Below are positions 3,439 to 36,623 of a DNA stretch of 64,000 nt, in pieces. Numbering within the stretch: the first letter of the stretch is position 1; every line of letters begins with the position of its first letter. Origin of the DNA: an uncultured Eubacteriales bacterium (GTDB taxonomy: Bacteria; Bacillota; Clostridia; Oscillospirales; Acutalibacteraceae); assembly GCA_934525065.1 (NCBI GenBank), contig CAKSYX010000003.1:27543-91542 (forward strand). The letters run 5' to 3'. Position numbers and translations under genes: made by a program. The notes under the pieces were generated by a model. The model saw only the letters and a list, made by a program, of their open reading frames with translations, did not search any database and was not told the origin of the DNA.

Positions 3439-3753
3439 TCATGCGCCGGTCTTTGCCGTGCTTTCTTTAAGCTTGTAGACCTCGCTTTCGATGAGAGCGG
3501 TCACCTCGTCAACGTCAAAAACAAGTCCTTTTGAAAGCAGAAAGCCGAGAACATAGTCCTTTTTCTTTGCTCCGGCTTTTTCGGTATTTCTGAAAAGCTG
3601 CTCCGCCGCTTTGACGGCGACGGAAAGCCAAAACTCAAGCCTTTCCTTCTTTTCCGCCGTCAGCCTTGAGCGAACGAACGGAATCAGAAAGCCGGTCAGC
3701 ACCGCAGAAATGACGGTGACTGCAATTTCAATAATAATTGTAATATCCTTCAT
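3439..3753 (-). CDS. phage holin-like protein (LL-H-type architecture)
   Basis: Start moved to the internal ATG at 3753, which has RBS AGGGAG. Product MKDITIIIEIAVTVISAVLTGFLIPFV has one N-terminal TM helix followed by a charged region. It is the last gene of the lysis module. Confidence 0.5.
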   Translation of the reverse strand: MKDITIIIEIAVTVISAVLTGFLIPFVRSRLTAEKKERLEFWLSVAVKAAEQLFRNTEKAGAKKKDYVLGFLLSKGLVFDVDEVTALIESEVYKLKESTAKTGA

Positions 3754-3766
3754 GTTTTTTCTCCCT

Positions 3767-4012
3767 TCATTGCAAAGCCTTGCCTTCAAGACTTTTAATT
3801 CTTCTTTCAAGTTCGGCAAAACGCTGTTCAAGCAGCTCTTCGCCCTTTTCAAGGTCATATGTGCGCTCAATCACGCTGTTGTGTTTTTCAACCTTCTTTT
3901 CAAGCTGCTCAAGGCGGTAGCTTGTCAGCTTGCCCGAGGTTAGTATTCCGCCGAATGTTCCGGCGAGGGTGCCGATGAGCGTGACGAGCGAAACGATTAC
4001 GGTGTCGTTCAC
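3767..4012 (-). CDS. small membrane protein with coiled coil (lysis-module accessory/holin-like)
   Basis: The GTG start overlaps the lysin stop (GTGA). N-terminal TM helix VIVSLVTLIGTLAGTFGGIL, then a heptad-like charged helix. Confidence 0.5.
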   Translation of the reverse strand: MNDTVIVSLVTLIGTLAGTFGGILTSGKLTSYRLEQLEKKVEKHNSVIERTYDLEKGEELLEQRFAELERRIKSLEGKALQ

Positions 4013-4770: not shown

Positions 4771-5589
4771 TCATATTGCAACGATTTTATCAGCATAAGC
4801 CGACCAGTTTTCGGCCGCTTTCCATTCATCAAGAAGCGCCTGCGGAACCTTAATTTGAAGATCCGAAGCGCACTGAGAAAAGACGTTGCTTCTTTCAAGA
4901 ATCGGAACGCGACTGTTTGAGGGAAAGCTGATTTGAGAAAGCGAGCTGCAGCCGCGGAAAGCAGTGTTGCTTTCAATCTTATAGATGTTACCCAAAAATG
5001 TTACCGAAGTCAGCGACGAACAGTTTTTGAACATCCACGGTTTGATGAAAAGAACGCCCTGCGGAACAGTCAGCGATTCAAGCGACGAACAGCCGGAAAA
5101 CATTCCCTCTTCTCCGCCGCCGAGCGAAGAAGGAAGCAGCAGCGACGTGAGACCGGAGCAGTTTTCAAAGGCATATTTTCCGATGGAGCGAACTGCGTCA
5201 TGAATTGATATCTCTGTCAGGGAAGAGCCGCTGAAGGCGTATTCGCTGATTGTGACCACGCCCTGCGGAACCGTCAGGCTTTTGAGCTTTTGGCAGCCGG
5301 TGATTACCCTTGAGCCGATTCTATATATGCTGTTCGGAAGAACAAGGCTTGAAAGTTGGAAACAGTCGGCGAATGCATAATTGCCGACCATCTGCGTTCC
5401 GTCCGGAACGGTTATTGAAGAAGCCGACTTGTCGAGCAGTTTGATAAGCGTGCTGTTGTCGCCGCCCGAAAGAGCCGTGATTTCCGTGTCGAAGTTTGCG
5501 GCGGGAATCTCGGCTGTGCTGTTCTTTTTGGCTTTGATTGCTGTTGCAATGTCAGCCAGAAAATTTGTCAGTGTGTCTGTTCTTGCCAT
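4771..5589 (-). CDS. leucine-rich-repeat (BspA-type) protein, phage tail-fibre/receptor-binding-like
   Basis: Repeats of the form ...I..YAF..C..L.S...P..V..I... occur about six times. The start overlaps the stop of the upstream fibre gene. Confidence 0.65.
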   Translation of the reverse strand: MARTDTLTNFLADIATAIKAKKNSTAEIPAANFDTEITALSGGDNSTLIKLLDKSASSITVPDGTQMVGNYAFADCFQLSSLVLPNSIYRIGSRVITGCQKLKSLTVPQGVVTISEYAFSGSSLTEISIHDAVRSIGKYAFENCSGLTSLLLPSSLGGGEEGMFSGCSSLESLTVPQGVLFIKPWMFKNCSSLTSVTFLGNIYKIESNTAFRGCSSLSQISFPSNSRVPILERSNVFSQCASDLQIKVPQALLDEWKAAENWSAYADKIVAI

Positions 5590-6401
5590 CAGTAGCTGCC
5601 TCCCAACGCCGTTCCGATTGCGGCTTTGATTGCGTCATAAACGCATTTTGCACCCGGCGCGGCTGAATTTGTTGAAGAAGCCGAAAGAGCCGTAACAAGC
5701 GGCGGCATACTTCCGGTATCTCCCTTTTCGCCTTTTTCACCCTTCTCGCCCTGTGCGCCTTTTTCGCCTTGTGCACCTTTTTCGCCGGTGTCTCCCTTTT
5801 CACCTTTGGCTCCGGTGTCGCCTTTTTCGCCCTTTTCACCTTTTTCGCCTTTGACTGTACCTGCGGTGAGAACAGAGCCGTTTGAAAGGGTGAGCCTGAG
5901 CTTTCCTTCGTTGTCGATTGCCGCCGTGCTGACCGAAACGCCGTCATAGAGCGCAAGCGAGGTTGAGGTGCCGTTTGAGAAGGATATCTTCATTCCGCTC
6001 TCCGTGCGCTCAATTTTTTCAATCTGCCTAAGATCAAGCGAGTTGATGAGGGCAAGAAGACTCTCATACTGCTCGTCTGTCAGCTCACCGACAGGCTCAC
6101 CCGGGCAGTCTTTGACCGAAAGCACACAGCCGACATCAGCCGTTGTTGAAGCAAGCGCGTCTGAATAAACACCGATTCCGAGGCATTCGCAGGGCGGAAT
6201 CTTCGGCATGGTCACCGTGTTTCCGGAAAAGGCAACATCGGTATACTGCGAGTCAAAAATAAACCGCGCCGTTCTGACCGTGTGCGCGTCCCATTCGTTG
6301 TCAAAGTCAAAGCTTACCGTGTAGTTTGCGTTTGAAGAAACAAGGTATCTTTTTTTGCAGGTTGCGATTTTTGAAGAAATTTTGATTTGAATGTCAGGCA
6401 T
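5589..6401 (-). CDS. collagen-like (Gly-X-Y) repeat protein, phage tail-fibre-like
   Basis: GEKGEKGEKGDTGAKGEKGDTGEKGAQGEKGAQGEKGEKGEKGDTG triple-helix repeat. Start set at the internal ATG (6401), which has RBS AGGAGGAAATA. Confidence 0.65.
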   Translation of the reverse strand: MPDIQIKISSKIATCKKRYLVSSNANYTVSFDFDNEWDAHTVRTARFIFDSQYTDVAFSGNTVTMPKIPPCECLGIGVYSDALASTTADVGCVLSVKDCPGEPVGELTDEQYESLLALINSLDLRQIEKIERTESGMKISFSNGTSTSLALYDGVSVSTAAIDNEGKLRLTLSNGSVLTAGTVKGEKGEKGEKGDTGAKGEKGDTGEKGAQGEKGAQGEKGEKGEKGDTGSMPPLVTALSASSTNSAAPGAKCVYDAIKAAIGTALGGSY

Positions 6402-15224: not shown

Positions 15225-17339
15225 ATGAAAAAAATTCTTGTTTCTGTTTCAGCAGTACTGCTCGCCGTTTTCCTTTCGTTTGCAGTTTACGCGGCAAATG
15301 AATCCGAGCCGAACAACAGTATGCTCCAGGCAAATTCGATTTCAACAAACGGCACCGTTTACGGTAATATATCCGTTAGCGGCGATGAGGACTACTACAA
15401 AGTCACTCTTCCATCTTCCGGAAGACTGTCTATTAAATTCAACTCATTCATTGAATACTACAGCCTTGTTCTTTTCGATGACGGCGGAAGCAACATCTGG
15501 TGGTCGGATAACAATCAGTGGGCTTCTACAACTATGATGAGAAGTGATACCAAAACAATAGACCTTGAAAAAGGTACATACTATCTCAAAGTTATTGGAC
15601 GTCGGTACTGGAATGGAAGCAGCAACTACACAGGAAACTATAACTTCACACTTTCCTTTGCCGCCTCGGGCGCAAATGTTGCAGAACCGAACAATAGCAT
15701 TGCTGAAGCACAAGCAATAAGTTTTGACTCAGCGGTCAAGGGACAGATCGCAGTTAACGACAGAGAAGATTACTATGCCGTCACTCTTCCGTCCTCCGGC
15801 AGAATAACTCTCAAATTTAATTCTTTCATGCAGTACTATTCTGTCGTTCTTTATGACACGGACGGAAATGAGCTCTGGTACAACGATGACAACGAATGGG
15901 TCTCCACCACACAAAAGAGAAGTGATACCCACACAATAGACCTCGAAAGCGGTACATATTATCTCAAGGTCAACGGCTATCATTATCGCGACGATAGCTG
16001 GTATTCTTCAACAGGAAACTATAACTTCACGCTTTCCTTTGCCGCCTCGGGCGCAAACATTGCAGAACCGAACAACAGCATTGCCGAAGCGAAGGCAATA
16101 AAATCCGGCTTGACAGTCAAGGGGCAAATCGCAATCAACGACAGGGACGATTACTATGCCGTTACTCTCCCCTCCTCCGGCAGAATAACTCTTAAATTTA
16201 ATTCTTTCATGCAGTATTATTCTGTCGTTCTTTATGACACGGACGGAAAAGAGCTTTGGTTCACCGATGACAATGAATGGGTATCTACCACACAGAAAAG
16301 AAGCGATACCTATACGATAGACCTTGAAAAGGGCATATATTATCTCAAGGTCAATGGTTACCTTTACAGAGATTCGTATCCTTCAACCGGCAATTATAAC
16401 TTCACTGTTTCTTTTAAAGCCTCTGGCGCGAATATTGCAGAGCCGAACAACAGTATCGCCGAAGCAAAGAAAATTAAATTCGGTTCAACAGTCAAGGGAC
16501 AGATTGCAGTTAACGACAGAGACGATTACTATTACTTCACACTTTCAGCTTCCGGAACGGTAACTATTAAGTTCAATTCTTATATGCGGTACTACTGCGT
16601 CGTCATCTATGATGCAGACGGAAAAGAACTTTGGTATACCGATGATAATGAGTGGATTTCAAGCAATAAATCAAGAAGCGATAAGCACAGTATTTCGCTT
16701 TCCGCAGGTACATATTATCTCAAAGTCAATGGCTACCTTTACGGAAATTCGTATGCTTCAACCGGCAATTATAACTTCACGCTGAAACAGGATATCTATG
16801 TTCCGAAGGTTTCACGCGTCTCGGCAAAAAGTTCAACCTCATCAATTTCCCTCTCATGGAAAAAGGTCTCCGGTGTTTCCGGCTACGAAGTTCAGATGAA
16901 GAGCGGAAAGAAATACAAAACCGTTGCAACAGCTTCAAAGACAAAAGCCGCCGTCAAAAAGCTCAAAACAGGAACGAAATACGCTTTCAGAATCAGAGCA
17001 TACAAGGTCGTTTCCGGCGTAAAATATTATTCGGGCTGGACAACATTTTCGGCTGCAACCGCCCCCGCCGCACCGTCACTCAAGGTAACGGCAGGAACAA
17101 AGAGCGCGACCCTCAAAGCAGGAAAGCAGGCAGCTTCGGGATTTGAAATTTACAGAGCAAGCAGCAAAAACGGAAAGTACAAAAAAATTGCAACCGTCAA
17201 AGGCTCGTCGCTCAGCTATAAAAACAAATCACTCAAAAGCAAAAGCACCTATTACTATAAGGTCAGAGCTTATGTCAGTGTTAACGGAGCAAAATACTAC
17301 GGCGCATTTTCATCCGTAAAATCAGCAAGAGCAAAATAA
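15225..17339 (+). CDS. secreted repeat protein: 4 x PPC (pre-peptidase C-terminal-like) domains plus 2 x fibronectin type III
   Basis: Signal peptide MKKILVSVSAVLLAVFLSFAVYA. Four ~125-aa units start EPNNS..A..I and contain DYY.VTLPSSGR...GNYNFTL. The tail has two FN3-like units (SLSWKKVSGVSGYEVQ, GFEIYRASSKNGKYKK). Confidence 0.75.
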   Translation: MKKILVSVSAVLLAVFLSFAVYAANESEPNNSMLQANSISTNGTVYGNISVSGDEDYYKVTLPSSGRLSIKFNSFIEYYSLVLFDDGGSNIWWSDNNQWASTTMMRSDTKTIDLEKGTYYLKVIGRRYWNGSSNYTGNYNFTLSFAASGANVAEPNNSIAEAQAISFDSAVKGQIAVNDREDYYAVTLPSSGRITLKFNSFMQYYSVVLYDTDGNELWYNDDNEWVSTTQKRSDTHTIDLESGTYYLKVNGYHYRDDSWYSSTGNYNFTLSFAASGANIAEPNNSIAEAKAIKSGLTVKGQIAINDRDDYYAVTLPSSGRITLKFNSFMQYYSVVLYDTDGKELWFTDDNEWVSTTQKRSDTYTIDLEKGIYYLKVNGYLYRDSYPSTGNYNFTVSFKASGANIAEPNNSIAEAKKIKFGSTVKGQIAVNDRDDYYYFTLSASGTVTIKFNSYMRYYCVVIYDADGKELWYTDDNEWISSNKSRSDKHSISLSAGTYYLKVNGYLYGNSYASTGNYNFTLKQDIYVPKVSRVSAKSSTSSISLSWKKVSGVSGYEVQMKSGKKYKTVATASKTKAAVKKLKTGTKYAFRIRAYKVVSGVKYYSGWTTFSAATAPAAPSLKVTAGTKSATLKAGKQAASGFEIYRASSKNGKYKKIATVKGSSLSYKNKSLKSKSTYYYKVRAYVSVNGAKYYGAFSSVKSARAK
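15306..16795 (+). repeat. four tandem ~375-381-nt coding repeats (PPC units)
   Basis: Unit starts at 15306, 15684, 16065 and 16440. Units 2 and 3 share near-identical stretches, e.g. ctccggcagaataactct.aaatttaattctttcatgcagta.tattctgtcgttctttatgacacggacggaaa. Confidence 0.85.
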
Positions 17340-19502: not shown

Positions 19503-19676
19503 TTAGATATCTTGACAATCAAAGCGGATGCGAGTATCCGTTACCCGCTTTTGATCCGGTCTTCCTGCATTAAACTCTCTGTTAGGCAAATTAGGATATT
19601 TATGTAAATGTCCTTGCTGCATATATTCAATCAGTTCTTTTCCGCAATCTTTAGGATGCCTATATTCCCGTGACAT
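19503..19676 (-). pseudogene. IS3-family (IS150-like) transposase OrfB fragment
   Basis: ...NLPNREFNAGRPDQKRVTDTRI resembles the conserved NLL.R.F.A..PNQKWVTDITY block preceding the DDE core. It is only 57 aa, with no catalytic domain. Confidence 0.35.
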
Positions 19677-19762
19677 AACAAATCCTCCCATGGCAGTTAT
19701 TTTAATTCTACCATAGGAGGCTGTTTTTTCTATTGTCCTTTTTTACGGACTTGTTCATTAAA
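19655..19762. repeat. ~100-nt repeat with strong hairpin (copy 1 of 2)
   Basis: Near-identical to 27667-27766. Core CCTCCCATGGCAG-ttattttaattct-(a/g)CCATAGGAGG (19684-19720) is flanked by T-runs on both strands, so it has the form of a bidirectional terminator. Confidence 0.8.
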
Positions 19763-20478: not shown

Positions 20479-20646
20479 TTAGGCGGAGAGCTTCGAACTC
20501 AATGCGGTTTTTTAAGGCAAATTTCCGCCGATACTGCGTTAAAACGCCTCGCAATGCTTGACACGGGTATAGTGAGACAAAAAGTGCTGCAATGTGCGGA
20601 AAAACAAGTTCTTCAGGCACATTGAGTTTGAAGCTCTCCGGCCTAA
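20479..20646 (+). repeat. modular TIR-closed intergenic element, copy A (168 nt)
   Basis: TTAGGCGGAGAGCTTCGAACTCAATGCG ... GCACATTGAGTTTGAAGCTCTCCGGCCTAA. The closing stem has 26 Watson-Crick pairs, 1 G-U, 1 C-A and a 1-nt bulge. It shares left and right core modules with copies at 27382-27660 and 36424-36623. Confidence 0.85.
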
Positions 20647-27381: not shown

Positions 27382-27660
27382 TTAAGCTGAGGAGAGTCGA
27401 ACCCAATGCGCCTGAAGAATTTGTTTTTCCGCATATTGCGGCACTTTTTGGTACGCTTACGTCAGTATGGCTTCGCCAAAGAAGCAGCACACTGCACGAA
27501 AAAACAAGCCCTTCAGGTGCGAAGCAGTTTTTAAAGAGAATTTTTGTCGAGACAAGGCAAAAAGGTGAGTAATGCCGGCGCATTGCGAGGCCTTTTTAAC
27601 GCAGTATCGGCGGAAATTTACCTTAAAAAACCGCATCGGGTTCGATTCCCCTCAGCTTAA
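27382..27660 (-). repeat. modular TIR-closed intergenic element, copy B (279 nt, inverted orientation, carries both internal modules)
   Basis: TTAAGCTGAGGAGAGTCGAACCCAATGCG ... CGCATCGGGTTCGATTCCCCTCAGCTTAA. The interior contains both the A-specific module and the C-specific module. Confidence 0.85.
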
Positions 27661-27666
27661 CTCTTT

Positions 27667-27766
27667 GGATATATTCCGTGGCACAAAAAAACCTCCCATG
27701 GCAGTTATTTTAATTCTGCCATAGGAGGCTGCTTTTTTCTATTGTCTTTTTTACGGACCGGTTCAG
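27667..27766. repeat. ~100-nt hairpin repeat (copy 2 of 2)
   Basis: Near-identical to 19655-19762. Hairpin at 27692-27728. Lies immediately after the stop of the minus-strand aminotransferase gene. Confidence 0.8.
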
Positions 27767-36423: not shown

Positions 36424-36623
36424 TAGGCTGAAGAGCTTCGAACTCAATGCGGTTTTTAAAGGCGAATTTTCGCCGATAATTCGCACCTGAAGGACTTGTT
36501 TTTTCGTGCAGTGTGGTGCTTCTTTGGCGAAGCCATACTGACGTATGACGAGACAAAAAAAGTGCCGCAATGTGCGGGAAAACAAATTCTTAAGGCGCAT
36601 TGAGTTCGGAGTTCTTCAGCCTA
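36424..36623 (+). repeat. modular TIR-closed intergenic element, copy C (200 nt)
   Basis: TAGGCTGAAGAGCTTCGAACTCAATGCG ... CGCATTGAGTTCGGAGTTCTTCAGCCTA. The stem is 28 bp: 26 Watson-Crick pairs plus 2 G-U on the plus strand. Confidence 0.85.

Follow-up and report, generated by a model that had tools for sequence, protein, structure and literature searches.

A probable MITE family, with TA-flanked 26-bp terminal repeats, in uncultured human-gut Oscillospiraceae

The DNA analysed here, a stretch of 64,000 nucleotides referred to as the window, contains three intergenic elements that resemble one another and raise the question of what they are and how they came to lie where they do. A first-pass annotation had described them as non-coding elements of 168, 279 and 200 nt with shared left and right modules, and our own reading and alignment bore this description out. 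The three elements, designated A, B and C, likely belong to a MITE family not described before, from uncultured human-gut Oscillospiraceae. Bacterial MITEs are defined as small, non-coding elements with TIRs, TA termini, TSDs and long stem-loops (PMC2229807). A MITE is an ordinary kind of element, and what is new here is the family itself.

Anatomy, size variants and occurrence of the elements

Counting copies by BLASTN and nhmmer had been proposed at the outset; run on the 64-kb window, BLAST, an nhmmer profile and a repeat finder agreed on exactly three copies (Table 1), with nhmmer E-values of 1e-13 to 1e-96 that lie far beyond chance. Distances of 7–9 kb separate the copies, and the surrounding housekeeping genes run in both directions. 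Copy A is flanked by the upstream gene's terminator and by a conserved promoter block that belongs to an ECF S-component gene, B lies between the terminators of two convergent genes, and C behind a terminator and ahead of a putative mfd gene. The alignment of A, B and C gives a left module, AATGCGGTTTTTTAAGGCAAATTTCCGCCGATA, and a right module, ACAAAAAGTGCCGCAATGTGCGG...CAGGCGCATTGAGTT; M1 is common to A and B and M2 to B and C, exactly as first described. Each copy is closed by the long terminal stem with co-varying arms that had been reported for it, 23–26 of 28 positions being complementary within each copy and subfamily-specific arm variants being matched on the opposite arm, and the G-U counts given for the arms of the three copies were about right.

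Table 1 Coordinates of the three elements and their parts in the window.
Feature	Position	Strand	Remarks
Copy A, deletion derivative	20480..20645	+	166 nt including TA at 20480-20481 and 20644-20645; body 20482-20643
Left TIR of A	20480..20507	+	TA + GGCGGAGAGCTTCGAACTCAATGCG
Right TIR of A	20618..20645	-	
Copy B, canonical full-length	27383..27659	-	277 nt including TA at 27383-27384 and 27658-27659; body 27385-27657
Left TIR of B (family orientation)	27632..27659	-	
Right TIR of B (family orientation)	27383..27410	+	
Hairpin H1 of B	27525..27634, approximate	-	Self-complementary, ~110 nt; includes M1
Hairpin H2 of B	27411..27518, approximate	-	Self-complementary, ~108 nt; includes M2 and right module
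66-nt tract of B	27458..27523	.	97% identical to C 36480-36545, inverted; holds the crossover of the strain inversion
Copy C, deletion derivative	36424..36623	+	200 nt including TA at 36424-36425 and 36622-36623; body 36426-36621
Left TIR of C	36424..36451	+	
Right TIR of C	36596..36623	-	
Hairpin H2 of C	36482..36597, approximate	+	
66-nt partner tract in C	36480..36545	.	

The canonical element is about 279 nt long and TA-flanked, with 26-bp TIRs (RGCTGARGAGNNTCGAACNCAATGCG). Family copies (those outside the window are cited by the L numbers of the fetched loci) range from 67 to 445 nt, differing by indels and deletions, and no conserved ORF was found among them. The commonest length, 277–282 nt, occurs at six independent sites (window B, L022, L027, L029, L009b, and L040 with its ortholog L042). 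Shorter forms measure 200–204 nt (C and L015), 157–167 nt (A, L047a and L047b), 97 nt (L020a) and 67 nt (L038, merely two arms), and about a dozen solo ends were also counted. The longer forms of 337–445 nt, L020b and L021, carry a nested element of about 166 nt that belongs to a second family and has its own inverted repeats. This second MITE-like family, with inverted repeats TTAAGGCAATACTGCGCAATTG, was seen at about 1402–1565 of L021 and at 5589–5756 of L020, nested in the left module of two first-family copies, and is absent from the window.

Because the canonical length recurs at six sites, A and C are different internal-deletion derivatives of a B-like element rather than assemblies of separate boxes. 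From hairpin H1, copy A retains the 5' portion, M1 included, and from hairpin H2 the 3' portion; C has H2 complete with most of H1 gone. The modular interior proposed by the first-pass annotation was therefore half right: the block differences between copies are real, but the blocks are internal-deletion remnants of the 279-nt form and not independent boxes.

The folded full-length element consists of the TIR closing stem and the two internal hairpins H1 and H2 of about 110 nt each, with folding energies down to -134 kcal/mol and z-scores that reach -13. The nhmmer profile matches its own reverse strand over positions 23–139 and 142–254. The CCGCA-N3-TGCGG motif of the right module, first taken for a hairpin, is not a conserved pairing, as full-length copies place those bases in the 3' arm of H2.

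The family was then placed among genomes by an exact 20-mer scan with one genome per species, in which real copies were found in just two genomes. One is the MAG CAKTDF01 (‘uncultured Eubacteriales’, Hadza gut), with 12 matching stretches on seven contigs, and the other is Ruminococcaceae bacterium UBA6857, placed in Oscillospiraceae by NCBI. Ten other matches of the genome scan are bare stretches of 20–24 nt, nine in other phyla and one in an Oscillospiraceae MAG, and were rejected as true copies: nine read as within coding sequence and the tenth is likewise merely short. ARAGORN found no tRNA at the short-match sites outside the lineage. A metagenome scan with the TIR only added ten gut loci (copies, solo ends and minis) and one chance match, L041, which lies in an unrelated contig and was discarded as a family locus. 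Viral contigs, plasmids and phages gave no family match. A protein encoded beside the elements is unchanged on human-gut metagenome scaffolds of the Hadza and MERR22 series. The family is restricted to related Oscillospiraceae MAGs and gut metagenomes.

Other repeats of the window were recorded by the way. The repeat finder reported a 9-nt periodic repeat of 13 units at 5701–5871 and three to four tandem repeats of about 375–381 nt at 15573–16783. A 90-nt direct repeat, 83% identical between 19668–19757 and 27676–27765, lies immediately downstream of two minus-strand genes. It consists of a terminator-like, bidirectional hairpin (CCTCCCATGGCAG...CTGCCATAGGAGG) and T-runs, and possibly represents a further small repeat family.

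TA termini, insertion sites and rearrangement

The termini of the copies are marked by TA. By script count TA adjoins 34 of 37 ends, one orthologous pair being counted twice; among the three misses, the left end of A does have its TA, displaced in register by a 1-nt deletion, which brings the count effectively to 35 of 37. TA makes up 3.3% of the dinucleotides of the window, and the sequence beyond it is unrelated from site to site. On the sequence, the TA could alternatively belong to the repeat instead of being a duplicated target. At L009, two abutting elements have a single TA between them, as would be expected if TA is the target and not a part of the element.

Several insertions abut, overlap or supply stop codons. 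At 2749–2788 of L044 (ortholog L037, 4709–4747), two genes are separated by a 40-nt solo end whose terminal TAA provides the upstream gene with its stop codon, directly before the ribosome-binding site of the downstream gene. At 3776–5863 of L020, a 97-nt and a 337-nt copy bracket ruvA-ruvB, one directly after ruvC and the other after ruvB. Together with its outer arms, this ruvA-ruvB unit is a 2-kb structure enclosed by inverted repeats, like a Correia-repeat-enclosed element.

The relatives L048 and L049, whose aminotransferase is 83–86% identical, have the same neighbouring genes, and A and B are absent from them. At the A site of L049 (GAAAAAAGCTTAATTAAAACCGC) the promoter block passes straight to the terminator, in a comparison for which both relatives' sites are too diverged to be matched base by base as filled and empty. 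Within the species no insertion polymorphism was seen, every strain contig that covers the sites carrying A and B; the elements are missing only where the relative differs at the species level. L022 and L029, from two species, are near-identical full-length copies that occupy different sites.

These observations bear on whether the repeats could be palindromic units that are non-mobile or spread otherwise, of a REP/BIME-like or terminator-like kind, with a symmetry maintained by template-switch correction and without selection. The copies do lie between genes and adjoin terminators, an internal hairpin with a T-run resembles a terminator, and quasi-palindromes are known to acquire ‘compensatory’ changes by mutation through template switching. 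Such a unit would, however, hardly be expected to have sharp TA-bearing termini at unrelated sites, nested and abutting insertions, near-identical full-length copies at the different sites of L022 and L029 and an absence from relatives, and the arms of resident copies do decay. We regard this explanation as very unlikely, and continue with the reading as a MITE.

An autonomous IS with the family termini was not found in the window or in the approximately 50 fetched loci when TIR matches were paired up to 3 kb. A partner of this kind is desirable, though most bacterial MITEs lack one. The one 2-kb TIR pair, in L020, was rejected as such an IS, since it encloses ruvA-ruvB and not a transposase, and the truncated ends at L010, L018 and L044 were rejected as IS ends, since they run into ordinary genes. 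A text search of the literature for the TIR strings found nothing.

Copies B and C have also served as recombination sites. They are inverted relative to each other and share a 66-nt tract that is 97% identical (repeat finder). Contig L050 (ENA ERZ27287062 k141_43780) joins window 40828->36480, at 99.95% identity, to 27382->29212, at 99.2%, through a junction of 145 nt common to C and B. The approximately 8.8 kb between B and C are inverted in one strain by recombination between the two copies, a result that rests on this single contig; a k=141 assembly cannot form a chimera through a 66-nt repeat. The inverted block holds mfd, znu transporter genes and the aminotransferase. From our reading of the junction sequence, the crossover lies near ACGTCAGTATGGCTTCGCCAAAGAAGCA, within the M2 tract common to B and C, and leaves a hybrid element at about 4205–4483 of L050 that combines one C-type with one B-type arm. 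The arms of the hybrid are mismatched, so that arm matching reflects the shared ancestry of both ends of an insertion. Of the two arrangements, that of the window, where the arms match, is the older.

A further rearrangement nearby is unrelated to the elements. Positions 3543–3567 of L033 join the sequence just after galE to that after a 646-aa gene (window about 19503 and 27200), which amounts to an inversion of about 7.7 kb. The terminator hairpin after galE is intact in L033, and the same hairpin is interrupted in the window. The L033 arrangement implies an aminotransferase that adjoins the ECF S-component gene, and this is the order in L048 and L049.

Terminal arms, internal hairpins and possible selection on structure

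The first-pass annotation had taken the G-U pairs of the arms as a hint of selection on an RNA or single-stranded structure. This did not survive the comparison of more copies. The arms of 17 copies are 26–28 bp long with 20–27 of 28 positions complementary, and their mismatches comprise 28 that are G-U on the top strand, 24 that are G-U on the bottom strand and 19 transversions, a pattern that reads as neutral, transition-biased decay of a DNA palindrome. Copy A orthologs of other strains have uncompensated arm changes (e.g., TAGGCGGAGAGC -> TAGACGCAGAGC in L008), and the flanking TA of A has become CA in L003, L004 and L007. The mismatched recombinant, the mixed orientation and the positions beside terminators also oppose the claim.

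In 15 copies, five arm pairs have two-sided changes, which split copies with TAGGCTGAAGAG[C/A]T from those with TAAGCTGAGGAGAG, and several arm columns have four to five unpaired cells. Arm covariation follows two subfamilies, as would be expected of both ends of one transposon, and in our reading the resident copies are under no structural selection. An orientation bias that might suggest a terminator or RNA role was considered and rejected, as orientation relative to the flanking genes is mixed. A GGTTCGAWTCC-like motif in the arms (e.g., 27640–27650) looks like a tRNA T-arm, with a ‘T stem’ of three pairs; this is probably coincidence. A tRNA origin of the TCGAAC/GTTCGA motif was rejected, ARAGORN having found no tRNA in the window.

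Covariation extends to the internal hairpins. Among seven full-length copies, 10 of 108 pairs have two-sided changes, compared with 0–2 in slid controls and 6.3 +/- 1.7 in shuffles. They include the internal pairs 165/237 (CG->GC), 154/247 (CG->UA), 178/224 (GU->UA) and 69/96 (GC->AU), the first three of which all change in the L027/L009b subfamily. In H2, G-U pairs number 8–12 on the top strand and 2–5 on the bottom strand, and in H1 they are balanced between the strands. The G-U positions of H2 are invariant across copies and hence ancestral. In a reading of the pair tables, seven cells of copy-specific H2 transitions keep top-strand pairing and five break it. Our reading is that the master copies, as they propagated, retained structure or symmetry along their lineage. 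For the arms this could be owed to transposase fit, and for the interior either to selection on a folded form or to the template-switch correction of quasi-palindromes.

The same results are those on which a structured non-coding RNA family, comprising sRNA genes or cis-regulatory elements with a three-helix fold selected by the host, would have to be founded. Very strong folding (z = -7 to -13), the excess of two-sided pairs over the slid controls, the G-U excess on the top strand of H2 and the better folding of the top strand in 13 of 17 copies are all what such a family would produce. The bottom strand nevertheless folds nearly as well, or better, in several copies, and the arms, with their near-even G-U counts and uncompensated ortholog changes, do not follow. 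In derivatives A and C, H1 or half of each hairpin is destroyed, and yet both are fixed across strains; the arm-mismatched recombinant has persisted, insertions face either way relative to their flanking genes, and copies sit behind terminators, with no promoter-like site inside A, B or C. The first-pass annotation had matched the element to no known RNA family, and Rfam agrees: its covariance models gave no match at the gathering threshold over the whole window, and a permissive scan of copy B gave a best E of 0.17 (21 bits against a threshold of 100), which is chance level. We give a host-selected RNA very little credence.

Movement through folded single-stranded DNA, with an enzyme that recognises the hairpins as in palindrome-associated derivatives of IS200/IS605 or in integron attC sites, would explain why two long subterminal hairpins are kept by compensatory changes between subfamilies and why an excess of G-T wobbles is confined to one strand of H2. 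But the strands of H1 are unbiased, whole hairpin arms are gone from the deletion derivatives, and there is a perfect 26-bp TIR with TA on both sides; IS200/IS605 elements are not known to have a TIR or to make a duplication. An IS200/IS605-type palindrome-associated element was rejected on the TIR, the TA and the unbiased H1, and an integron attC on the wide spacing of the copies among housekeeping genes, with no cassette array and no R' or R'' core sites. Scarcely any probability attaches to this route.

There is also a reading in which the three-helix foldback is itself selected in the propagating lineage, such that a copy must fold while single-stranded, as transposition DNA or as an RNA product, in order to spread. 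It would account for the compensatory changes of the internal hairpins, which a model of transposase acting on the ends does not need, and for the one-strand G-U excess of H2. We consider it unlikely; if true, it would mean a structure-dependent mechanism of mobilisation or a mobile structured RNA.

Proposed mechanism, closest known systems and significance

What is observed is a repeat family with TIRs and TA flanks, restricted hosts, absence at orthologous sites, neutral decay and use in recombination. From these we infer duplication of the TA, past mobility and a type of transposase. A transposase supplied in trans would bind both matching ends of the MITE and excise it, and the excised element would be inserted at a TA dinucleotide, which would thereby be duplicated. 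The likeliest enzyme would be a DDE transposase of the IS630/Tc1-mariner kind, as elements of that group target TA and duplicate it on insertion (PMC2170065), although we hold a relationship to this group specifically with somewhat less than even confidence. Once resident, copies undergo neutral decay, which takes the form of point changes, internal deletions (A, C and the minis of 67–160 nt), reduction to solo ends and nested insertions. Arm co-variation would arise because the two ends of each copy share one master element and must fit the same transposase, and with the two long internal palindromes a three-helix foldback forms from either strand.

In function, the Correia elements and RUP come closest. 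Correia/NEMIS elements of Neisseria are small non-coding MITEs, mostly intergenic, with TIRs of 24–26 bp and TA at both ends; they vary in size by an internal segment, their transcripts would form long stem-loops, and no cognate transposase is known for them (PMC2229807). The likeness to Correia elements drawn by the first-pass annotation is in our judgement apt, as the gut family is likewise small, non-coding and dispersed, with TIRs, TA ends, size variants by internal segment, long stem-loops and no known transposase. By description it differs in its Bacillota/Oscillospiraceae host, in a longer canonical form (279 nt) with two extra internal palindromes of about 110 nt, and in that no IHF site or outward promoter was identified; sequence likeness was neither seen nor expected. 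RUP of Streptococcus pneumoniae is a TA-targeting MITE that an IS630-family transposase is believed to mobilise in trans (PMC2229807). Like this IS630-Spn1-derived element, the gut family is a TA-flanked MITE of a Firmicute, but RUP is 107 nt long with short TIRs that match a known IS, whereas the gut family has TIRs of 26 bp, a double-foldback interior and no known parent IS.

Other systems share single features. By the TA rule, the family resembles IS630/Tc1-mariner IS such as ISY100, which have TA on both sides of their TIRs and target TA (PMC2170065), but it has no transposase gene. Like ERIC/IRU of enterobacteria, the whole element is an imperfect palindrome that may form long hairpins and has internal insertion and deletion variants, but the TIRs of ERIC are short (7 bp contiguous), it forms one hairpin only, and it is unrelated in sequence and host. 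Pneumococcal BOX is superficially similar, as different copies have different internal blocks; BOX, however, is built of boxA, boxB and boxC units with a variable number of boxB, whereas the modules of the gut family are remnants that internal deletions have left of a 279-nt element.

The finding contributes a MITE family from a group of human-gut Clostridia that is uncultured and has been little studied. Its copies break metagenome assemblies, several contigs stopping inside them, and give rise to spurious ORFs; they may also be of use as strain markers and as handles towards finding the transposase. The paired changes of the internal hairpins between subfamilies do not by themselves challenge current understanding, but they bear on how such MITEs are recognised and moved.
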